This document shows, piece after piece, positions 1 through 9,067 of a stretch of 12,399 nt of DNA. The notes beneath the pieces are model-generated. The model saw only the letters and a program-made list of their open reading frames with translations. It had not been told where the DNA came from and did not search any database. A program made the translations under genes and the position numbers. How positions within the stretch are numbered: position 1 is the stretch's first letter; every line of letters begins with the position of its first letter. The stretch lies in contig JBQTGV010000061.1 of assembly GCA_052390515.1 (NCBI GenBank), forward strand, positions 1-12,399, in the 5' to 3' direction. Origin of the DNA: Candidatus Eiseniibacteriota bacterium (GTDB lineage Bacteria > ARS69).

Positions 1-6
1 CTCGCT

Positions 7-56
7 TCGTGGCCGCCGGCCTCCGCCGTCCGTGGCTCCGGACACGGCGGCTACGA
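7..56. repeat. GC-rich imperfect inverted repeat / hairpin downstream of the HTH-TPR gene (REP-like element or terminator stem)
   Basis: TCGTGGCCGCCG (7-18) and CGGCGGCTACGA (45-56) are complementary at 11 of 12 positions. An alternative inner stem pairs CCGCCGT (23-29) with ACGGCGG (44-50). There is no clear U-tract and the element is close to the window edge. Confidence 0.3.
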
Positions 57-93
57 CGCTCGGCCATCTGATCATTTCTTTCGAGACGGAACA

Positions 94-858
94 CTAGCGA
101 ATCCCCAGATCCCGCCGCAGCCTCTCCGCCCACGGGCTCGAGGGATCCTGCTGCAGGTACCGGTTGGCGTGCAGCCGCGCGTCGCCGTAGCGGCCGCTGG
201 CTGCGTAGGCCTCCGCCAGGTTGTAGTGCGGATCGGCCCAGCCCGGCGCGAGCAGCAGGGCGCGCTCCGCCGCGCGGATCGCCTCGTCCCATCGCCCCGC
301 GTCGGCGTAGGCCCCGCCGAGGTTGTTCCAGGCCTCGACGTACTCCGCGTCGATCTCGACGGCCATCTCGAAGCGGTCGATGGCCTCGTCCAGCCGGCCC
401 AGCGCGTACAGCGCGTTGCCCAGGTTGAAGGCGATCTCCGCGTCCGGCCCGAAGTCCAGCAGCGCCTGCTCGTAGGCGAGCACGGCACCCTCCAGATCGT
501 CCTCCTCCTCCAGCTCGACGGCGCGCTCGAAGGCGTCGGCCACGGGAACGACGGGCCGGTCGCGGAAGCCTTCGATGACGCGCAGCGCCGGCCGCGCGGG
601 CGCCGCGGCGGCCGCAGCCGGCCGCGCGCCGAGATCGAGGCGAAGCTGCCCGGTCCGCTCGGCGAGGCCCGTCTCGGTGAGCTCATGGAGCTTTTTGAGC
701 TCCGCCATCTGCCGGAAGTCGAAGTACTCCAGGCGGCGCTCGATACGCGCCGGGCGGATCAGCCCGCGGCGGACCCAGCCGCGGATCCGTGGAACCGGAA
801 TCTTGAGGATGCGGCCCAGCTGCGCAACAGTATAGAAACGCTCCACGTTCGGATCCAC
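94..858 (-). CDS. MerR-like helix-turn-helix + tetratricopeptide repeat protein (254 aa), third gene of the ku-ligase unit
   Basis: The N-terminus FYTVAQLGRILKIPVPRIRGWVRRGLIRP...YFDFRQMAELKKL fits a MerR-type winged HTH. An Ala/Pro linker follows, then about 4 TPRs (AFNLGNALYALGRLDEAIDRFEMAVEIDAEY; AWNNLGGAYADAGRWDEAIRAAERALLLAPGW; PHYNLAEAYAASGRYGDARLHANRYLQQDP). GTG start preceded by purine-rich GGAAGGGG, 30 nt after the ligase stop. Confidence 0.88.
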   Translation of the reverse strand: MDPNVERFYTVAQLGRILKIPVPRIRGWVRRGLIRPARIERRLEYFDFRQMAELKKLHELTETGLAERTGQLRLDLGARPAAAAAAPARPALRVIEGFRDRPVVPVADAFERAVELEEEDDLEGAVLAYEQALLDFGPDAEIAFNLGNALYALGRLDEAIDRFEMAVEIDAEYVEAWNNLGGAYADAGRWDEAIRAAERALLLAPGWADPHYNLAEAYAASGRYGDARLHANRYLQQDPSSPWAERLRRDLGIR

Positions 859-888
859 ACCCGCCCCCTTCCCGACGACGCCGTCATT

Positions 889-1791
889 CTACTCCTCGAT
901 GAGCTCCACGAAAACAGGCGCGCGCAGTTCCCCGGCCTCGGTCCGCTCCAGGAACTCGACGGTGCAGTAGAGGCCCGGCTCCACCCACGTGGCCTCGACC
1001 GGGGCGGGGAGGAACGGCTCCGCCCGCAGGTGACGCCGCAGCACCGTGTGCACCTCAGCGCGCTTCGCGTCGTTCCAGCCGCTGCCGACGCGCCCGGCGT
1101 AGTGCAGCGTCCCTCCGTCCTCGGCGGCGATGACCAGGCTGCGCAGATCCCCGCCTTCCGCGATGAACCCGAGCACCGCGCAGTACATGCGCTGGGTCCG
1201 CTTGATCTTGACCCAGGCGTCGGTCCGCTTGCCGGGGAGATAGGGGCTGGTGAGGCGCTTGGCCACGACGCCCTCGAGCTCCCGCTTCACCGCCTCCTCG
1301 AAGAAGGTCGCTCCGTCGCCGACCACGCCGTCGGAGCGGATCAGCCGCGGATCCGGGTGCGGGGCGAGCAGCTCGTGGAGCGCCTCCCGCCGCTCCGAGA
1401 GTGGCCGGCGCATCATCGACTTGCCGTCCCGCATCAGCAGGTCGAACGCGACGTACGCCGCCGGGAGCTGTTTCATGAGCGCCTGCACCCGGCGCGGCTC
1501 CTGGGCCTGCTCGCGCTGCAGCATGGCGGCGAAGGTGGGGCGCCCCTTCTCGAGAATGACGATCTCACCGTCCAGCACGGTGCCGCCGGGCAGGCCGGCC
1601 AGGAACTCGAGCTCGGGATAGGCGTCCTTCCGGGAGCGGCGCTTTCTGTTCAGCAGGCGGTAGCTGCCGTCCTCCACGAACGCCAGCGCCCTCGTCCCGT
1701 CCCACTTGATCTCGAAGACGTGCTCGTCGGATGCGAAGGGCTTGCCGATCTTCGCCAGCATCGGTTCGATGAAGGCCGGCAGCTTGGCCAT
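889..1791 (-). CDS. Stand-alone ATP-dependent DNA ligase of the LigD-ligase/LigC type (nucleotidyltransferase + OB domain, 300 aa)
   Basis: Motif I EIKWDG (adenylated Lys29 at 1705-1707), III LDGEIV, IIIa YVAFDLL, IV LEGVVAKR, V WVKIK. OB-domain signatures YAGRVGSG, WVEP and VEFLERT..GELRAPVF. GGGAGG upstream at 1804-1809. Confidence 0.93.
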   Translation of the reverse strand: MAKLPAFIEPMLAKIGKPFASDEHVFEIKWDGTRALAFVEDGSYRLLNRKRRSRKDAYPELEFLAGLPGGTVLDGEIVILEKGRPTFAAMLQREQAQEPRRVQALMKQLPAAYVAFDLLMRDGKSMMRRPLSERREALHELLAPHPDPRLIRSDGVVGDGATFFEEAVKRELEGVVAKRLTSPYLPGKRTDAWVKIKRTQRMYCAVLGFIAEGGDLRSLVIAAEDGGTLHYAGRVGSGWNDAKRAEVHTVLRRHLRAEPFLPAPVEATWVEPGLYCTVEFLERTEAGELRAPVFVELIEE

Positions 1792-1870
1792 GGCTCAGCC
1801 CGCCCTCCCGCGATGCCCGGTCTCGCTGCCAAGGCAGGGTGGCTGCGACTGGAACCGGCTCGCGAAGCGG

Positions 1871-2761
1871 CTACCCGGCCTTCCGCTTGCGCTTCGCTGC
1901 CGCGTCGGTGCTCGGCGCGAGCTTGGCCTTCGCCGTCTTCTTCTTGTCCGGCTTCGCCGCCGAGGCCGCCGGCACTCCGCTCCGCGCCGACTCGACGCTC
2001 GCCTTGAGCGCTTCCATCAGGTTGATGATCTTCGGCTCCTCGGGCTCGGGTGCCGCGATGATCTCCTCGCCCTCGATCTTCGCCTCGATGAGCTTGTGCA
2101 TCTGCTCGACGTAGTTGTCGGAGAACTGCGAGAAGTCCAGCTCGGTGATCCGCGACGCGTCGATCAGCGTCTTGGTGAGCGCGACTTCCTCCTTGGTCAC
2201 CTTCGTCTCCTTGACCTCGTCGGCGAAGTCCGCGGCGCGGCGCACCTTCTCGTGATAGGTGAGCACGGTCATGGCCAGCGTGTCCTCCACCGGGCGGACG
2301 ACCACCATGTGCTCTCGGGAGGAGAGGATGGCGGAGGCCAGCGCGTAGAGACCCTCGGCGCGCATCGCGTCACGCAGGAGCTGGTAGGGCTTGTTTCCTG
2401 CGGGTCCGTCGGGCACGAAGTAATACGTGCTTCCGGAGAAGTAGATGGGGTCGAGGGCGTCCTGCCGGATGAAGCCCTTGATCTCCACCGTCTTGTCGCT
2501 CTCCTTGCGGAGCTTTTGCACTTCCTCCGGCTCGACGAGCACGTACTGGTCCTTGGTGTACTCGTAGCCCTTGACGATGTCCTCACCGGCGACCTCGCCG
2601 TGCTCCGGACAGACCTTCTGGTACTTGATGCGCTGGTTGCAGTCCTTGTGGAGCTGATTCAGCCGGATCTCCTGCGACGAGATCGAGGCGGTGTAGCCGC
2701 GGACGGGCACCGACACGAGGCTCAGTCGGAGGAATCCCTTGAACGTCGGTCGCGGGGCCAT
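1871..2761 (-). CDS. ku: Prokaryotic Ku DNA end-binding protein (NHEJ), 296 aa
   Basis: Typical Ku core: FKGFLRLSLVSVPV, IRLNQLHKDCNQRIKYQKVCPEH, IVKGYEYTKDQYVLV, DPIYFSGSTYYFVP, YQLLRDAM. Conserved C-terminal helix KIINLMEALKAS and a Lys/Ala-rich basic tail. Shine-Dalgarno GGGAGG 6 nt before the ATG (2768-2773). Confidence 0.96.
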   Translation of the reverse strand: MAPRPTFKGFLRLSLVSVPVRGYTASISSQEIRLNQLHKDCNQRIKYQKVCPEHGEVAGEDIVKGYEYTKDQYVLVEPEEVQKLRKESDKTVEIKGFIRQDALDPIYFSGSTYYFVPDGPAGNKPYQLLRDAMRAEGLYALASAILSSREHMVVVRPVEDTLAMTVLTYHEKVRRAADFADEVKETKVTKEEVALTKTLIDASRITELDFSQFSDNYVEQMHKLIEAKIEGEEIIAAPEPEEPKIINLMEALKASVESARSGVPAASAAKPDKKKTAKAKLAPSTDAAAKRKRKAG

Positions 2762-2825
2762 ACCGATCCTCCCGAGAAGCGCGAGCGCGGACGGAACGCG
2801 AGTATCGTATCATACCCACTTCGCC
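2762..2825. promoter_or_regulatory. 64-bp divergent intergenic region between ku and ligD with overlapping -10-like hexamers
   Basis: The AT-rich patch GTATCGTATCATAC (2802-2815) reads TATCAT (2808-2813) on + and TATGAT (2814-2809) on -. The ku RBS is at 2768-2773. No convincing -35 elements were seen. Confidence 0.45.
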
Positions 2826-4865
2826 ATGACCGAGAAGGACTGGTCCCTCGAAACCTACCGCGCGAAGCGGGACTTCCGGAAGACGCCGGAGCCGGCTCCG
2901 AGCCGCCCGAAGGCGCCCGCGCCGGCGCGCGCCACCGAGGGTCCGTTCGTGATCCACCGTCACGAGGCTCGCAACCTCCACTACGACCTTCGCCTGGAAA
3001 TGGAGGGAGTGCTCAAGTCCTGGGCCGTCCCCAAGGGATTCTCCTGGGTGCCGGAGCACAAGCACCTCGCCGTCAGGACGGAGGACCACCCGATCGAGTA
3101 TCTCGAGTTCGACGGCGTGATCCCGAAGGGCCAGTACGGCGCGGGCACGATGACGATCTGGGACCGCGGGATCTTCCGGATCATGGGCGAGGGCGACGGG
3201 CTCGAAGGGCTGGAGAGCGGCAAGCTCGAGGTGGAGCTCTCCGGCGGGCGGCTGCGCGGCCAGTGGCACATGATCCGCCTGGCCAAGAGCGACAAGGACT
3301 GGCTGCTCTTCAAGTACCGGGACCGCTACGCGCGCGCCGAGGGCGAGGCGGAGTTCCCGCTCGATCTGTCGCGGGCGGCGCCGTCGACACTCCCGGCGCG
3401 GGCGAAGGCCATGCGCCCGGCCGCCACCCGCGAGCCCTTCTCCGATGCCACCTGGGCGTTCGAGCTGGACTTCGCCGGAGCGCGGCTGCTCGCGACGGTC
3501 GACGACGACACCGTGCGGTTCGCGGGAGCGGACGGGGCGAAGTTCGAGCTGCCGCTTCCCGAGATCGAGCTGGCACTGCGCAGCCTCCGTGCGCGACGGG
3601 CCCTGCTCGACGGCGTGCTCGTGGCCGCGGGCGAGAGCGACCGGCCGGACGCAGAGCTGCTCCGCGCGAAGCTCGCCGCGGGGGAGACCGCCGAGCTGCG
3701 CTACTACGCGTTCGATCTGCTGCATTACGAGGACTGGTCGCTCACCGCGTTCCCCTTCGAGGAGCGCAAAGCCGCGCTCGCCGCCGTCCTTCCGCCGAGC
3801 GCCAGCGTGCTCTTCGTCGATCACGTCGTGGAGCGCGGCACGGAGCTGGCCCAGGTCGTGGCTCAGGGCGGGCTCGGCGGGATCATCGCCAAGCGTCGCG
3901 GATCGCCTTACGTTGCCGGGCCGTCCGCTGACTGGGTGCGCGTGCCGGTCGAGGCCGGAGCGGCGTCGGGCGCGCCGCCCGTCGTGCGCTCCAAGGTCAA
4001 GTTCTCGAACCGGGACAAGATCTACTGGCCGAAGGAGGGGATCACCAAGGGTCAGCTCCTCGACTGGTACGACCGCATGGCCGACGTGATCGTGCCCTAT
4101 CTCCGCGATCGCCCCGTGCACATGCTGCGTTATCCCGACGGCATCGAGGGGAAGTCGTTCTATCACAAGAACGTGACCGGTCGGATCCCGGACTGGGTGC
4201 AGACCGTGCTCATCAAGGAGGAGGGGGGCGAAGAGGTTCGCTACGTCGTCTGCAACGACCGCGACACCCTGCTCCAGCTCGTGAACCTCGGCAGCATCGA
4301 CCTGCACCCGTGGATGTCGCGCACGGACGCTCCCGAGATGCCGGACTACGCCATCATCGACCTGGATCCGTCGGACGACGACTTCTCGAAGCCGGTGCGC
4401 ATCGCGCGGACGATCGGCAAGATCCTCGGCGGATGCGGATTGCGCGCGCGGCTGAAGACGTCGGGGAAGTCCGGCCTGCACATCTACATCCCGCTGGTGC
4501 GGCGCTACACGTACGAGCAGGCCCGCATGTTCTGCGAGGTGGTGGCGCGGATGTCCGTCGTCGAGCACAAGAAGATCGCCACGGTGGAGCGCGTTCCCGC
4601 CAAACGCGGCGACAAGGTGTACGTGGACTTCGGGCAGAACCGCCGCGAGCAGACCGTCGTGCCACCGTACGTCGTCCGCCCCGTGGAGCGCGCCCAGGTC
4701 TCCACGCCCCTCGACTGGGACGAACTGTCGCAGTCCATCCACCCCCGGGACTTCCACATGGGCAACGTCCCCGACCGGCTGGAGCGCCTGGGGGACCTCT
4801 TCCGTGGCGTCCTCTCCGATCTGCAGGAGCTCGAGCCGGCCATCGAGGCGCTGGAGCGCCGCTGA
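2826..4865 (+). CDS. ligD: LigD-like NHEJ protein: 3'-phosphoesterase + degenerate ligase NTase domain + AEP polymerase (679 aa from ATG 2826)
   Basis: PE domain: LETYRAKRDFRKTPEP, FVIHRHEARNLHYDLRLE, LKSWAVPKG, EDHPIEY, GQYGAG, IWDRG. Ligase-like middle domain: FELDFAGAR, LDGVLV, YYAFDLL, GGIIAKR, SPY. Polymerase: FSNRDKIYWP, RYPDGI, LHPW, IIDLDP (4359-4367), KTSGKSGLHIYIP, VYVDFGQN. The ORF track start at 2739 overlaps ku. ATG 2826 matches the usual LigD N-terminus. Confidence 0.93.
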   Translation: MTEKDWSLETYRAKRDFRKTPEPAPSRPKAPAPARATEGPFVIHRHEARNLHYDLRLEMEGVLKSWAVPKGFSWVPEHKHLAVRTEDHPIEYLEFDGVIPKGQYGAGTMTIWDRGIFRIMGEGDGLEGLESGKLEVELSGGRLRGQWHMIRLAKSDKDWLLFKYRDRYARAEGEAEFPLDLSRAAPSTLPARAKAMRPAATREPFSDATWAFELDFAGARLLATVDDDTVRFAGADGAKFELPLPEIELALRSLRARRALLDGVLVAAGESDRPDAELLRAKLAAGETAELRYYAFDLLHYEDWSLTAFPFEERKAALAAVLPPSASVLFVDHVVERGTELAQVVAQGGLGGIIAKRRGSPYVAGPSADWVRVPVEAGAASGAPPVVRSKVKFSNRDKIYWPKEGITKGQLLDWYDRMADVIVPYLRDRPVHMLRYPDGIEGKSFYHKNVTGRIPDWVQTVLIKEEGGEEVRYVVCNDRDTLLQLVNLGSIDLHPWMSRTDAPEMPDYAIIDLDPSDDDFSKPVRIARTIGKILGGCGLRARLKTSGKSGLHIYIPLVRRYTYEQARMFCEVVARMSVVEHKKIATVERVPAKRGDKVYVDFGQNRREQTVVPPYVVRPVERAQVSTPLDWDELSQSIHPRDFHMGNVPDRLERLGDLFRGVLSDLQELEPAIEALERR

Positions 4866-4925
4866 CCGCCAGCCGCCGCCCCACGGAGGCAATGTCCTGG
4901 GACGCTACCCCCGCCGGGCGGCCGC

Positions 4926-4955
4926 TTGAAGCCGGGGGTGAGAATCCTCTACTCT
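4926..4955 (+). promoter_or_regulatory. Putative sigma70-type promoter for the secreted-protein genes
   Basis: TTGAAG (4926-4931), an 18-nt spacer and TACTCT (4950-4955), ending 26 nt upstream of the proposed TTG start at 4982. It overlaps a 7-bp inverted repeat, ACCCCCG (4907-4913) / CGGGGGT (4933-4939). Confidence 0.35.
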
Positions 4956-4981
4956 CGGTCGGTTCCCGTCCGGGGGTCCGG

Positions 4982-5644
4982 TTGAAAGCCGCCGTCATTC
5001 TGATCTCTCTCCTCGCCGCGGCCCGAGCCGAAGCCGCCGCAGTGTCCGCCGTCGTCCTCGACGTGACCCCCTGGCGGTCGGCCCTCCGCTCCACGCTTCG
5101 CCTGGAGGCGAGCGGCCGCGTCGAGCGCTGGGACTTCGCCGCGGGTCACGTGCGCAGCGTGGGAGTGGCCGTGCTGGCCGAGGAGGAGACCCGCCGGCTC
5201 TTCGCTCTGGCGAAGGACGTGCCGCTCGCAGCCGAGACCGGCGACCGCGACGGCGACGTGCTGCTGCTCGCCCGGAACGGCGACGTCGCCGTGTACCGTG
5301 AGCCGGAGGCTCCTGCCGCGCTCGAAACCTTGAGGAGCGAGCTGTCCGCCGCCACCGCGAATGCCGCGGCACCGCTCGAAGGTGGCAGCTGGGTGCGCGT
5401 GGAGCCGGTCGCGGCGGAGCGGGAGCAGGCGCTTCGAGCCGCCGGCATCGAGGCCATCCCGCTGGACACCTTCGCGCCGGAAGGCCGTGAGGCTCTCGAG
5501 AGCGCGGCCGTGGAGCCGTGGTCCTTCGTTCCGCTCACGGATCCCGCGCTCGGCGATGTGGTCGAGCACACCGACTGCGACGAGTTCTACGTCGTCCTGG
5601 CGGATTCCCGTTGGACCCAGGCCACCCTGTGGGATTCACCTTGA
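4982..5644 (+). CDS. Hypothetical secreted protein (~220 aa)
   Basis: This is the 3' part of track ORF 4310..5644, whose 5' part is an off-frame overlap with ligD. From TTG 4982, MKAAVILISLLAAARAEAAA reads as a Sec signal peptide with an AxA site, followed by globular-looking sequence with GC-rich third positions. An alternative in-frame ATG lies at 4892. Confidence 0.65.
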   Translation: MKAAVILISLLAAARAEAAAVSAVVLDVTPWRSALRSTLRLEASGRVERWDFAAGHVRSVGVAVLAEEETRRLFALAKDVPLAAETGDRDGDVLLLARNGDVAVYREPEAPAALETLRSELSAATANAAAPLEGGSWVRVEPVAAEREQALRAAGIEAIPLDTFAPEGREALESAAVEPWSFVPLTDPALGDVVEHTDCDEFYVVLADSRWTQATLWDSP

Positions 5645-5689
5645 TCTCCTGATCCGAGCCCGACACCCCGTTCCCCCGCGAGGCGTCTC

Positions 5690-8600
5690 ATGTTCGACCT
5701 GCGTCCGAAGCTCCCCGCCGTGTTTCTCTTCGCGTGCGCGCTCTGCGCGCCCGCCGCTCCGGTGTCGGCCGGAACCGGCCGCGTGCGTGCCACGAGTCCG
5801 TCGACGTTCATCCTCGACTTCTGCGTCTCGGTGCAGTTCCAGGCGAACGCCGCCGAGCTCGTGAACATCCAGCGCGCCATCACCGACGCCTCCGCCGTGC
5901 TGGCCGACGCCACCGACGGCCAGTACGCGTTCGGGAACGTCGACATCGTGAACGACTCGGGCGCGGGGGCCGACGCGGAAGTCTGGATCAAGAGCCAGGC
6001 AGGAAGCGCATACGGGACCCCGGGGCTCTACGGCAGCCCGGGCGAGCACATCACGCTGTACTACCCGACGAACTGCACGGGGACGCCGGCGCTCAACGGG
6101 GACGCCTACACGCTCGCGCACGAGTTCGGTCACCACTTGTGGGGGCTGAAGGACGAGTACGCCGGACCGATCGGCGCGGCGGAGTGCGAGCCCGCTCCCG
6201 GCAGCCCCTCGGCGAGCTTCTCGCTGATGGACAACTTCTTCGCCCGCGGCGGCAACGATGGTGCCGGCACCGGCACCTACACGCTGAACGAGTTCTGCGT
6301 CGCGGCGAACCACGATCCCGACTTCGACACGGCACAGCAGGCGAAGTGGGGCGTGTCCTGCTGGGGGAGGATCTCCGCGCACCCGACCCGGCCGGCCGTG
6401 CACCCCGTGGGGCTCCCCGCCGGGCCGCCCCCCGTGGTGACCGCACCCGTGTTCCGCTTCCCCGTGGGGGAGCGGCGCTTCGTGCTGCTGATCGACCGCT
6501 CCGGCGACCGTCCTTCGCAGCCGATGCAGCTGCCGTCCTCGCAGCAGGCCGCCCGGCTCTTCGTCGATCTGGTCGATCCGGGAGACGCCATCGCCGTCGT
6601 GTCGTTCGCGGGGACGGCCACGGTGGACTTCCCGCTGACCGTGATCCAGGGACCGGCGGAGCGTGCCGCGGCGAAGGCCGCGATCGACGCGCTGACGGTC
6701 GGCGGCGCCACCTCGCTCGGCAACGGACTGATCGCGGCGCGGGACGAGATCCTCGCGCAGTCGCAGGCGTCGTGCACGCAGCAGATCCTCCTGCTGAGCG
6801 ACGGCATCGCGAACCTCGGGCCGCCGGAGCTCTCCGTCGTGCCGAGCCTCGTCGGCGCCGGCATCGCCGTGTTCCCGTTCGCGCTGGCGCAGCCGCCGAA
6901 ACCGGAGAACCTCGCCGTGCTGGCCGCGCAGACAGGCGGATCGTTCGCCAGCGTCTCGGTGCTGGACGAGCTGCCCGGGTTCCTCGCCGGGACCTTCGCC
7001 GACACGTACGGATCGGGAGTGGCCACCGAAACCGGCGGCACGGTGACCCAGGGTGGGACGTTCACCGCCCCCGCCTTCATCGAGCAGGGCGCGACGCGCG
7101 TGCAGTTCGTGCTCTTCTGGGCGGACCTGGACGACCTGATCGATCTCACCATCGAGGCTCCGGACGGCACGGTCTACTCCGCGGCCGACACCACGAACCC
7201 GGATGTCGAGTTCGTCTCCAGCCCGGGAGTACAGGTGCTCTCCCTCGGGGGCGCCGCGGTCGATCCCGCCGGAGGCGAGTACAAGATGATTCCGGGTGGA
7301 ACGCAGCTCGACACGGACGGCGGCTCGTTCTGCCTGTCCGCGCTTCCGGCGAACGGCGCGGTCTCCATGGCGATGGACGTGGGACAGCCCACGTTCTCGG
7401 CCGGGCAGCCGATCGCGGTCAGCGCCACTCCACGCTTCCGCGGCAACGCGGTCGTCGGCTCGTCGCTGAGCGGCGAAGTCGTCCTGCCGAGCGGGGTCAC
7501 CATGCCGATCGTGCTGTTCGACGACGGCAACCCGGCGAACGGCGACGACCTCGCCGGCGACGGCGTGTACGGAGCGCGCGTGTCCTCGGTGGGCGCCGGG
7601 CTCTACTCGTTCCACGTGGACGCGGAGGCCATCGCCGACGTGACCTTCGGCGGCGAAGCCCTGTACCAGACCGTCGGTGCACCGATCTTCTCGGAGACCG
7701 CTCCCGACTTCACTCGCTTCGCCAACGCCTCGGCAGTGGTGACCGACAGCGTGGCGACCGGCGATCCGACCATGACCTGTCCGCCGCCGGTCACCGCCGA
7801 GGCGACGTCCGCGTCCGGTGCATCGGTGACGCTCTCGACCGACGTCGCCGACGGCGGCGGGCAGGCGCTCACCGTCACGTGGATCGTGGACGGAACGCTG
7901 GCGCAGACCGACCTGGTCCCGGCGGGTCCTGGTGCCACCGTGACCCTCACCCGGGCGTACTCGTTCGGCGCGCATCCCGTGCAGATCACCGTGTCCGACG
8001 GGTTCAGCTCCCTGTCGTGCGCCACGGCGGTCTCCGTCGTGGACACGACCGCGCCGACGCTCTCCGTGACGCTGAACCGCACGGTGCTCTTCCCGCCGAA
8101 CCGCGCCCTGATGAGAGTGACCGCGACGATCGGGGTCTCCGACGCGACCGATCCCGCGCCGACGTTCGTGCTGTCCTCCATCACCAGCGACGAGCCGGAC
8201 AGCGGCATCGGCTCCGGCGACGTTCCCAACGACATTGTGCGCGCGGCGGTCGGAACGCCCGACACGACGTTCGAGCTGCGCGCCGAGCGTGACCCCGCCG
8301 GCGACGGCCGCGTCTACTCCATCGTTTACACGGCGACGGACGTGCACGGCAATTCGGCGAGCCACACCTCGCTCGTCACCTGTGCCGCGGGACACCTGCC
8401 CGGATCGGCACTCTCCGCCACGGGGTTCGCGGCGGACGGAACCGGCATCCTTCCCGGGGCTCTGAGCGTCCACGTCGTCATCCCGTCGGTGCCAGGCCTC
8501 GTCGATGCGTTCGCCGTGGATCCCTCGCTCGTCGTGCTCGGGAACGAGGTGGACGTCGTCGCGCCGCTCTCGACGCGCTTCGCCGACGTGACCGGGGACG

Positions 8601-9067
8601 CGCTCACCGACCTGATCGCGGAGTACCCCGCGGGCGTGACCGACGCGCTGCGCGCTGCGTCGCAGCCGGCTCCCGTCGCGCTGTACTTCGAGACGGACGC
8701 GGCGGCGTACCTGGTCACCGACGTGTTCGCGCTGGGTCCGCCGGTTCCGATCGTTTCGACGGATGCGACGGCGCAGGCCGGATCCATCGACCTGTACCGT
8801 CCGACGCCGAACCCGTTCACCGGCACGAGCCGCGTGGCGTTCGCCGTGCCCGGCTCGACGCCGGCCGCGGTGACGTTCACGGTGTTCGACGTGGCGGGCC
8901 GGGTGGTGCGGCGCATCGTCGAGCACCAGACCTTCGCCCCGGGACGGCACGACCTGAGCTGGGACGGCCGGGACGGTTCCGGCCGCGAGGTCCTGTCGGG
9001 CGTCTACCTCCTGCGGCTCGAGGTCGGGGCGGAGGAGCGGACGCTGCGAGTCGTGCGCCTCCGGTAG
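5690..9067 (+). CDS. Secreted CLCA-like zinc metalloprotease / vWA protein with Ig-like (HYR/PKD-like) modules and a C-terminal FlgD-Ig/T9SS-like domain (1125 aa)
   Basis: Signal peptide MFDLRPKLPAVFLFACALCAPAAPVSA. HEFGHHLWGLKDEY (6119-6160) followed by a Cys-containing segment (SLMD, EFC, SCW). vWA motifs VLLIDRSG, IAVVSF, GGATSLGNGL and ILLLSDG. LFDDG..GDDLAGDGVY (7514-7570). Ig-like modules: PTMTCP, VSVVDTTAPTL, LFPPN, LRAER..GRVYSIVYTATD. C-terminal PNPF...VFDVAGRVVR...WDGRDGSGREVLSGVYLLRL. GAGG RBS at 5680-5683. Confidence 0.88.
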   Translation: MFDLRPKLPAVFLFACALCAPAAPVSAGTGRVRATSPSTFILDFCVSVQFQANAAELVNIQRAITDASAVLADATDGQYAFGNVDIVNDSGAGADAEVWIKSQAGSAYGTPGLYGSPGEHITLYYPTNCTGTPALNGDAYTLAHEFGHHLWGLKDEYAGPIGAAECEPAPGSPSASFSLMDNFFARGGNDGAGTGTYTLNEFCVAANHDPDFDTAQQAKWGVSCWGRISAHPTRPAVHPVGLPAGPPPVVTAPVFRFPVGERRFVLLIDRSGDRPSQPMQLPSSQQAARLFVDLVDPGDAIAVVSFAGTATVDFPLTVIQGPAERAAAKAAIDALTVGGATSLGNGLIAARDEILAQSQASCTQQILLLSDGIANLGPPELSVVPSLVGAGIAVFPFALAQPPKPENLAVLAAQTGGSFASVSVLDELPGFLAGTFADTYGSGVATETGGTVTQGGTFTAPAFIEQGATRVQFVLFWADLDDLIDLTIEAPDGTVYSAADTTNPDVEFVSSPGVQVLSLGGAAVDPAGGEYKMIPGGTQLDTDGGSFCLSALPANGAVSMAMDVGQPTFSAGQPIAVSATPRFRGNAVVGSSLSGEVVLPSGVTMPIVLFDDGNPANGDDLAGDGVYGARVSSVGAGLYSFHVDAEAIADVTFGGEALYQTVGAPIFSETAPDFTRFANASAVVTDSVATGDPTMTCPPPVTAEATSASGASVTLSTDVADGGGQALTVTWIVDGTLAQTDLVPAGPGATVTLTRAYSFGAHPVQITVSDGFSSLSCATAVSVVDTTAPTLSVTLNRTVLFPPNRALMRVTATIGVSDATDPAPTFVLSSITSDEPDSGIGSGDVPNDIVRAAVGTPDTTFELRAERDPAGDGRVYSIVYTATDVHGNSASHTSLVTCAAGHLPGSALSATGFAADGTGILPGALSVHVVIPSVPGLVDAFAVDPSLVVLGNEVDVVAPLSTRFADVTGDALTDLIAEYPAGVTDALRAASQPAPVALYFETDAAAYLVTDVFALGPPVPIVSTDATAQAGSIDLYRPTPNPFTGTSRVAFAVPGSTPAAVTFTVFDVAGRVVRRIVEHQTFAPGRHDLSWDGRDGSGREVLSGVYLLRLEVGAEERTLRVVRLR

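Follow-up and report, generated by a model that had tools for sequence, protein, structure and literature searches.

Which protein seals DNA ends at a bacterial non-homologous end-joining (NHEJ) locus whose LigD has a ligase domain stripped of its catalytic residues, and what part is played by a fourth gene beside it, encoding a helix-turn-helix (HTH) and tetratricopeptide repeats (TPRs)? The question is raised by positions 94 to 4,865 of a 12,399-nucleotide sequence (the window) from a Candidatus Eiseniibacteriota bacterium (assembly GCA_052390515.1). The window is the entire 12.4-kb contig JBQTGV010000061.1 of a metagenome-assembled genome (MAG) of 4.27 Mb and about 70% G+C. An initial annotation, made from the nucleotide letters alone, had proposed a four-component module made up of Ku, an active stand-alone ligase, a LigD with a dead ligase domain and an HTH-TPR protein. 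On the evidence given here, the locus is probably a bacterial NHEJ module with a distinct, horizontally spread architecture, in which the four products would have the roles set out in the last section.

The HTH-TPR gene, the ligase gene and ku are co-directional on the minus strand, with gaps of 79 nt between ku and the ligase gene and 30 nt between the ligase and HTH-TPR genes, and the gene for the LigD-like protein lies head-to-head with ku across 64 nt; these distances match those of the initial annotation exactly. The features are as follows (PE, 3'-phosphoesterase; POL, primase-polymerase; AEP, archaeo-eukaryotic primase; NTase, nucleotidyltransferase; OB, oligonucleotide-binding; aa, amino acids).

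94..858, minus strand: HTH-TPR (fourth) gene, 254 aa, GTG start with AAGGGGG upstream; a shortened member of the BRCT-HTH-TPR family
889..1791, minus strand: stand-alone LigD-type ATP-dependent DNA ligase (NTase and OB), 300 aa, identified by TIGR02779, Pfam, alignment to 1vs0 and motifs
1871..2761, minus strand: ku, 296 aa, with a Lys-rich C-terminal tail (TIGR02772, PF02735)
2762..2825, no strand: divergent intergenic region between ku and the ligD-like gene, 64 bp, with putative back-to-back -10-like elements read from the sequence
2826..4865, plus strand: LigD-like PE / pseudo-ligase / POL protein, 679 aa from ATG; the frame is open from 2739
2847..3323, plus strand: PE domain, residues 8-166 (TIGR02777, 192.4 bits, cut-off 144)
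3381..3953, plus strand: pseudo-ligase with the NTase fold only, residues 186-376, without the catalytic Lys/Asp/Glu/Lys and without an OB domain
3987..4805, plus strand: POL (AEP) domain, residues 388-660 (TIGR02778, 225.1 bits; PF21686, 272.5 bits)

A LigD-like protein without catalytic residues and a separate ligase

The bacterial Ku is recognized by TIGR02772 (258.5 bits against a cut-off of 150) and PF02735 (165 bits against 25), and it is the sole Ku found in the window's genome (G000), where PF02735 was matched once. Both end-processing domains of the LigD-like protein score above the cut-offs of their models: PE matches TIGR02777/LigD_N, with HxH...HYDLR and EDHP..Y stretches, which we take to be the PE motifs, visible in the translation, and POL matches TIGR02778/LigD_Prim-Pol (cut-off 214.7 bits). 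The full-length LigD models TIGR02776 and NF004628 fell short of theirs (332.6 against 373.2 and 516.9 against 895 bits).

The ligase part of this protein gave a weak DNA_ligase_A_M match (37.8 bits) and an alignment to TIGR02779 at profile positions 3-182 of 302, while the Pfam search returned no DNA_ligase_A_C (OB) match. Since the ligase-model match ends at position 182 and the POL domain begins about 15 residues further on, the OB fold is missing. In an alignment with 1vs0, the ligase domain of M. tuberculosis LigD, the window has FELDFAG for FEGKWDG, GGIIAK for EGVIAK and WVRVP for WVKDK, with LDGV at motif III. The dead ligase domain that had been proposed is thereby borne out by the replaced catalytic residues, and the OB-fold half proves to be absent as well. 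An AlphaFold2 (AF2) model of the LigD-like protein from an 8-row alignment reached a predicted local distance difference test (pLDDT) of about 90 at residues ~185-375 and was poor over the remainder, and no statement about PE or POL rests on it. The closest structure to the modelled pseudo-ligase was the NTase half of M. tuberculosis LigD (6nhx; Z 23.3, root-mean-square deviation 2.0 Å, 184 aligned residues), the superposition spanning chain residues 453-639 and stopping at 639.

The stand-alone ligase, in turn, matched the NHEJ ligase-domain model TIGR02779 above its cut-off (230.7 against 227.75 bits), has both DNA_ligase_A_M and DNA_ligase_A_C, and aligns to 1vs0 over residues 9-291. Motifs I (KWDG), III (LDGE), IV (EGVVAK) and V (WVKIK) are intact, so this 300-aa protein carries the complete catalytic motif set expected of the active ligase first proposed. 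It scored 131.6 bits with the LigC model PRK08224, below the cut-off of 296. The other ATP-dependent ligase in the genome is a 639-aa three-domain protein of LigB type (contig C58, 3442-5361, minus strand, locus L022; PRK03180, 737.9 bits against 641).

The loss of catalytic residues extends across the whole set of related domains. A motif table of 105 distinct NTase sequences, from all loci fetched by then, comprised 42 pseudo-domains and 63 lysine-bearing (K-type) ligase domains. The motif I lysine was present in at most 1 of 42 pseudo-domains and in 63/63 K-type domains, the motif I aspartate in 5/42 and 63/63, the motif III and motif IV glutamates each in 0/42 and 63/63, and the first and second motif V lysines in 0/42 and 62/63 and in 0/42 and 58/63, respectively. 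The residue at the motif I lysine position varies among the pseudo-domains (E, D, A, R, S or T), and the single one with a lysine there (L055) reads KFLG. Residues of the fold are retained: the aspartate of motif III in 42/42, that of motif IIIa in 42/42, the motif IV lysine in 40/42 and the motif V tryptophan in 41/42, the D-G of motif III and the F-D of motif IIIa being fold-determining.

Without the motif I lysine, no enzyme-AMP intermediate forms in ATP-dependent ligases. By this chemistry, the LigD-like protein would be unable to seal, and sealing would fall to the stand-alone ligase; as judged from the motifs, such a division of labour between the two proteins is well supported. Very improbably, the LigD-like protein might still ligate, through a non-canonical nucleophile or together with the stand-alone ligase, whose OB fold would act in trans. 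The nucleotide pocket may indeed survive, as the motif IV lysine (40/42), the Phe-Asp of motif IIIa and the tryptophan of motif V are kept, and L055 reads lysine in motif I. But the motif I lysine, the glutamates of motifs III and IV and both motif V lysines are gone, the replacements at the lysine position vary, and a stand-alone ligase accompanies the short LigD in 7/7 Planctomycetota genomes and at every assessable locus of the window's phylum.

The pseudo-domain has been kept, as the initial annotation had supposed: its frame is open in each of the 42 sequences, its length does not vary among them, and it is predicted to fold. It is also the least conserved folded part of the protein, with a mean pairwise identity among seven window-phylum orthologues of 0.55, where PE has 0.74 and POL 0.80. 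Between G007 and G010, the most similar pair (dS ~0.3-0.4), dN/dS was 0.31 for the pseudo-domain, 0.10 for PE and 0.045 for POL; constraint on the pseudo-domain is thus relaxed but, with a ratio below 1, persists. Such figures (identity 0.55; dN/dS 0.31-0.66) are also what would be seen if the pseudo-domain and the shortened fourth gene were functionless relics, the former a tolerated spacer and the latter a gene heading to loss. We consider this rather unlikely. Since its single origin, the pseudo-domain has kept an open frame, a constant length and a confidently predicted fold across 42 sequences and three labelled phyla, and a segment serving as nothing but a spacer should have shortened or been disrupted; the fourth gene's side of the question is taken up below.

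Recurrence of the module and its pairing with the separate ligase

The window's phylum was sampled by 12 species-level genomes from one family. A full-length orthologue of the LigD-like protein (64-66% identity) is present in six of the other genomes and, split across two contigs, in a seventh; all eight orthologues of the phylum lack the catalytic lysine. The order HTH-TPR gene, ligase gene and ku, with the LigD-like gene nearby, is the same in five of five assessable relatives (G001, G004, G006, G007 and G010), a count that leaves aside G009 and G011, in which the contig ends inside the cluster. Another member of the family, G005 (73% complete), has a canonical Ku and full LigD locus (L020) and a second locus (L021) where dead-type LigD pieces in several frames stand beside Ku and a TPR fragment and where no stand-alone ligase match was found; L021 is either a decaying module or the product of assembly indels.

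Beyond the phylum, a pattern scan of 185,579 species genomes with an alignment of the fourth protein yielded 541 confirmed relatives, of which the best 80 loci were kept. Most of them come from MAGs that carry the label Planctomycetota or Spirochaetota, and a few from MAGs named as Gemmatimonadota, Eisenbacteria or simply 'bacterium', phylum names here being the submitters' labels. The genes lying directly upstream of the fourth gene on the same strand were distributed as follows.

ku and ligase: 38 of 80 loci (37 of the 71 loci with at least 2.5 kb upstream)
ku only: 12 of 80 loci (10 of 71)
ligase only: 7 of 80 loci (5 of 71)
neither: 23 of 80 loci (19 of 71)

A full-length LigD-like gene occurs in 29 loci of this set, 28 of which lack the lysine. 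The grouping first seen on one contig thus recurs elsewhere, the four genes standing together in 5/5 assessable relatives of the phylum and at many loci labelled Planctomycetota or Spirochaetota.

A second survey, not anchored on the fourth gene, covered 151 Planctomycetota genomes drawn evenly from the phylum and searched three times. Matches to the fourth gene separated into full-length ones (E <=1e-45) and TPR-only ones (E >=6e-33). Ku was found in 22 of the 151 genomes, the full-length fourth gene also in 22, and both in 16; in 15 of these 16 the fourth gene lies on the same strand, at most 4 kb downstream of ku. A short, single-piece LigD-like gene occurs in 7 of the 151, and in all seven a gene for a KWDG ligase lies between ku and the fourth gene. 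That end processing (PE and POL) and sealing sit on separate polypeptides, the arrangement first read from the window, is supported.

Genomes with a canonical LigD show the reverse pattern. All 14 canonical LigD ligase domains checked, in frames of 649-975 aa, have motifs I and IV intact and the OB region covered, and both lysines of motif V are kept in 13, the exception (G047) reading WLKVRC. In eight of the 15 adjacent cases, ku and the fourth gene stand too close together for a ligase gene to lie between them (G043, G044, G063, G087, G126, G137, G151 and G172). Motifs I, IV and V of the canonical LigD are intact in six of these (G043, G044, G126, G137, G151 and G172); of the remaining two, which lie outside this motif reading, G063 has an 854-aa LigD frame, and G087 gave only a LigD fragment. 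The sample examined shows perfect complementarity between a LigD with a dead ligase and a stand-alone ligase.

A FastTree phylogeny of the 105 distinct NTase domains placed 42/42 pseudo-domains on one side of a branch with a support of 100 and united 45/45 stand-alone ligases in one clade with a support of 99. The sequences include a LigB and a stand-alone ligase reading KGDG, neither of which is a pseudo-domain. Read in the simplest way, this tree would mean that the ligase domain was inactivated once, that a separate LigD-type ligase was recruited once, and that the cluster then spread. A fifth conserved gene was sought at 44 loci, and none was conserved, the largest cluster outside the module covering 8 of the 44.

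The fourth gene and its family

The fourth gene had been described as encoding an HTH-TPR protein. The HTH and the TPRs are indeed present, but the family to which it belongs is wider, with a BRCT domain and a clamp-motif-like peptide, and the window copy is shortened. In most homologues the open frame extends 100-120 residues upstream of the HTH. Among seven homologues scanned with this extension, Pfam BRCT scored 22.0 bits in one and 17-20 bits in three and gave no match in three. A profile of 30 N-terminal extensions matched the BRCT domain of RFC1 (2ebu and 2k6g; E 1.3e-9) and that of the NAD+-dependent ligase LigA (2owo, E 2e-8; 1l7b, E 6e-8), followed by TopBP1 and ligase IV. Designer pentatricopeptide repeat (PPR) proteins, which occupied the top rows of that search, were rejected as repeat artefacts with no significant single stretch. 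The MerR_1 HTH scores above its cut-off in the window copy and in 8/8 homologues scanned.

An AF2 model (38 rows) of the G007 orthologue (pLDDT 87; predicted template modelling score, pTM, 0.64) suggests a beta-alpha-beta-alpha-beta-alpha N-terminal domain, then a winged HTH, two helices and a hairpin, followed by a disordered stretch and nine TPR helices (4 TPRs). Where MerR regulators have a long dimerisation helix and an effector domain, the model has a 14-residue helix, the hairpin, a disordered linker and the TPRs. A fold search with the whole model returned TPR proteins alone, and the BRCT and hairpin region thus lay outside this test. Directly after the hairpin, at one fixed place, all 81 sequences have an invariant GQ, which opens a hexapeptide Q-L-x-[L/F]-D-F; its sixth position is F in 75/81, and its fourth is L, F, M or I in 81/81. 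The hexapeptide fits QLxLx[LF] in 26 of the 81 sequences. As given in the accessible portions of the sources, a hexameric beta-clamp-binding pattern is QLxLxL (PMC4564189), and a beta-clamp motif described as variable is QL(S/D)LF (PMC9690074). The conserved hexapeptide resembles a clamp motif, and binding to DnaN is putative.

In a protein atlas, the family appears under the automatic names 'tetratricopeptide repeat protein' and 'MerR family transcriptional regulator' and as one BRCT/MerR/TPR cluster, clusters of 362, 184, 91 and 84 members being among those that hold it. An atlas cluster near the protein of locus L027 (60 members, ~488 aa, MerR_1 and TPR) is auto-named 'DNA polymerase III subunit epsilon family protein', a name that may reflect exonuclease fusions or annotation transfer alone.

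The window copy keeps the MerR-type HTH core (residues 9-65), the peptide QLRLDL (residues ~71-76), which fits QLxLxL, a Pro/Ala linker and about four TPRs (residues ~110-250). The combination of HTH, GQ/Q-L-x-[LF]-D-F peptide and C-terminal TPRs (FNLGN / EAWNNL) is present apart from a gap of ~45 residues, where the 31/31 others of the alignment have two helices following the HTH core and then the first strand of the hairpin. Its MerR_1 match (PF13411, 37.5 bits against 21.6) covers profile positions 1-57 of 69, whereas that of the homologues is complete, and the family model matches it at positions 100-162 and 205-384 and nowhere else. Positions 1-99 being unmatched, the copy has no N-terminal BRCT: the start codon lies only 30 nt from the ligase stop, which closes the frame. 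The ligase and HTH-TPR genes share a reading frame, separated by the ligase TAG stop (889-891) and 10 codons (856-888). A search with the family model found no second copy in the window's genome. A sub-group of further homologues without the BRCT extension (L091, L095, L097-L102, L061 and L084) is mostly labelled Planctomycetota (L099 and L102 have no phylum label), so that the domain has been lost more than once.

From the read-set searches, record 18 of X3 and record 2 of X1 were used; X2 and X4 gave short pieces of relatives alone, and the many joints with sides of ~20-30 letters, which resemble other organisms, were set aside. A contig from another study's run (X3 record 18; 891 nt, 72 differences, ~92% identical) spans window positions 219-1097 and both deletion sites and differs otherwise by a 9-nt in-frame insertion after 888 and a 3-nt insertion after 547, with no other indel. 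Because this contig has the same shortened form, an assembly error confined to this MAG does not account for the deletions. For the possibility that the fourth gene is a relic, this evidence falls on both sides. The two deletions are shown by none of the 31 others, and 6 of 22 Ku-bearing Planctomycetota genomes do without the gene; the shortened gene nevertheless keeps an open frame, QLRLDL and conserved TPRs, and the same form in a ~92%-identical contig means that it has persisted through some divergence.

The fourth gene is not specific to the dead-ligase module, since it follows ku equally in loci with a canonical, active-motif LigD. Several observations weigh against reading it as part of an NHEJ machine, or against the reading of the locus as a whole. 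At 19 of 71 assessable homologue loci no NHEJ gene lies within reach, and the neighbours there are unrelated (amidohydrolase, M28 peptidase, methyltransferase, HD), with no repair genes seen among them. Of the 22 Planctomycetota genomes with the fourth gene, six, with a more divergent copy, lack Ku, and the six of 22 Ku-bearing genomes without it were mentioned above; the family is thus not tied to NHEJ alone, and the gene is dispensable for Ku/LigD systems generally. None of the 81 sequences fits the strict QL[SD]LF, a MerR-type HTH is a hallmark of transcription factors, and the window copy, without the BRCT and part of the HTH, may be decaying. The dN/dS of the pseudo-domain, ~3 to 7 times that of the neighbouring domains, fits a mere linker as well as a dock. 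Finally, genomes within each phylum are kin, so that the counts overstate independent support, and all source organisms are uncultured MAGs. A complex prediction for a Ku dimer with the HTH-to-TPR part (a Planctomycetota pair) scored 0.01 against a mark of 0.32, which says nothing either way.

Several of these points would suit a fourth gene that encodes a transcription factor of the operon, a MerR-type DNA binder whose TPRs and BRCT sense a signal and which has no part in repair. This is an unlikely alternative. The MerR_1 HTH recurs throughout the homologues scanned, the family exists away from NHEJ genes and in six Ku-less genomes, and promoter-like TGnTAnnnT elements occur in ku upstream regions. 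However, a by-eye reading of 49 ku upstream regions, with no motif finder or shuffle control, revealed no shared palindrome or operator-like repeat. MerR-target promoters typically have long spacers, and the promoter-like sites of the Spirochaetota have 17-bp spacers. Moreover, the model of the protein shows neither an effector domain nor the long helix by which MerR regulators dimerise, its gene stands at the operon 3' end rather than divergently, and it has an RFC1/LigA-type BRCT and a clamp-motif-like peptide, neither of which is, to our knowledge, known in bacterial regulators. In two Pirellulales-labelled loci with ku followed by the fourth gene (L058 and L073), 2-3 copies of the palindrome TGCTAGCA lie just upstream of ku; they look like an operator for some regulator and were not seen in the other 47 of the 49 regions.

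In the window itself, the 64-bp intergenic region has putative -10-like elements, TATGAT on the ku strand and TATCAT on the ligD strand, although a consensus promoter scan of positions 1-5200 called no promoter. In a terminator scan, no such site was detected on the minus strand between ku, the ligase gene and the HTH-TPR gene, and purine-rich stretches precede both internal starts, of the ligase gene and of the HTH-TPR gene, so that the three are likely to form one transcription unit.

An adaptor at DNA ends is favoured over a mere regulator because of the BRCT class, the clamp-like peptide in a predicted disordered linker, the TPRs, the 3' position in the operon and the absence of a shared operator; on such sequence features, we hold the chances of the adaptor role to be about evenly balanced. 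Its role would not be confined to NHEJ, since the family occurs without NHEJ genes. It is improbable that the cluster as a whole serves another pathway, such as gap or base-excision-type repair of the kind postulated for mycobacterial LigC/PrimC, with Ku secondary. LigC/PrimC have been linked to base excision repair in the accessible text of PMC8068969, and the clamp-motif-like peptide and RFC1/LigA-type BRCT would also suit nick or gap repair, but ku is the gene most constantly linked, PE and POL are canonical NHEJ end-processing domains, and the ligase scores above the TIGR02779 cut-off and not that of the LigC model.

In the remainder of the window, positions 5690-9067 (plus strand) encode a predicted secreted protein of 1125 aa, unrelated to the repair genes, with VWA, PKD and C-terminal FlgD-Ig-like domains and a weak M64 peptidase-like stretch with HEFGHH. 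It is followed by a gene running off the contig (9084-12398, plus strand) for a protein of >1105 aa with a Ser/Thr protein kinase, a STAND-type NTPase and many TPRs. No family was found between the ligD-like and VWA genes (4866-5689); the frame 4310-5644 has no Pfam match, and its later part resembles a signal or membrane segment.

Proposed working and relation to known systems

In the proposed working of the module, Ku would bind DNA ends, and the PE and POL domains of the LigD-like protein would heal and fill them with no sealing by that protein; the 300-aa ligase encoded after ku would seal. The pseudo-domain would be retained as a structural piece, to hold PE and POL apart as a spacer or to offer a surface for docking, a role that is a weaker inference than the division of labour. 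The fourth protein would be a DNA-end or clamp-linked adaptor for Ku-dependent repair, and a scaffold role in a physical complex is plausible. A fuller version, tentative and on balance doubtful, is a four-part machine in which the BRCT/HTH/clamp-peptide/TPR adaptor would tie Ku-bound ends to the sliding clamp and the enzymes, while the dead shell would serve as a dock handing the healed end to the separate ligase.

The nearest known system is the canonical PE-LIG-POL LigD with Ku (Pseudomonas-type; NF004628 / TIGR02776). The LigD-like protein shares its domain order, with PE and POL above their cut-offs and a position next to ku, and the structure nearest to its middle domain is that of the LigD ligase domain. 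It differs in lacking the catalytic residues and OB fold of that domain, in its full-length scores below the cut-offs, and in that sealing would come from another gene.

Sealing by a second ligase has a precedent. According to the accessible portions of PMC5124664 and PMC8068969, mycobacterial LigC, a single-domain ATP-dependent ligase, can take over sealing in a Ku-dependent pathway if the ligase domain of LigD is impaired, and a stand-alone ligase as the sealer is consistent with this back-up role. The mycobacterial case, however, as far as these texts go, concerns a laboratory mutation and an unlinked LigC of another family, whereas here the defect would be ancient and fixed, and the ligase is of LigD type (TIGR02779) and encoded in the ku operon. 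In Streptomyces, NHEJ functions are split over separate polypeptides (kuA-polK, ligC-polR and a stand-alone ligD; PMC5124664). There the genes are fully split and scattered, with no pseudo-ligase remnant reported in the accessible part of that source, whereas here PE and POL are fused around a dead shell and the genes are clustered.

The family of the fourth gene also combines known parts in a different way. Its N-terminal domain matches the RFC1/LigA BRCT by profile, but is joined in a small bacterial protein to a MerR-type HTH and TPRs and is absent from the window copy. BRCT domains of the RFC1/LigA class bind 5'-phosphate ends, and BRCT domains occur in eukaryotic NHEJ factors, as in this Ku-linked family. 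With MerR regulators it shares the N-terminal winged HTH, whereas the coiled-coil dimerisation helix and effector domain appear to be replaced by TPRs, BRCT and a disordered linker.

The initial annotation had regarded such a complex as not experimentally described. This holds in part: split NHEJ functions and a back-up ligase are known (PMC5124664 and PMC8068969, in their accessible portions), while for a natural pseudo-ligase LigD and for a BRCT/MerR/TPR gene linked to ku no description was found in the literature searched, which did not cover supplements and subscription journals. In its accessible portion, a structural review of LigD discusses neither an inactive ligase domain nor stand-alone forms nor accessory factors. 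One survey, in its accessible portion, classes genomes by domain presence only (PMC7719229). Any survey scoring 'LigD present' by domain matches alone would take these genomes to have a conventional, active LigD.

Two proteins make up bacterial NHEJ as it is described in textbooks and used in genome editing. In the clade of loci studied here, which spans three labelled phyla, another arrangement has become fixed, and the module offers a natural separation-of-function system for the role of the LigD ligase domain beyond sealing. The fourth gene is a candidate for the first accessory factor of bacterial Ku. If the four-part machine proved true, it would be a parallel to the BRCT- and scaffold-dependent NHEJ of eukaryotes, and the lineage of the window would have a minimal adaptor made up of the HTH core, the clamp peptide and the TPRs.

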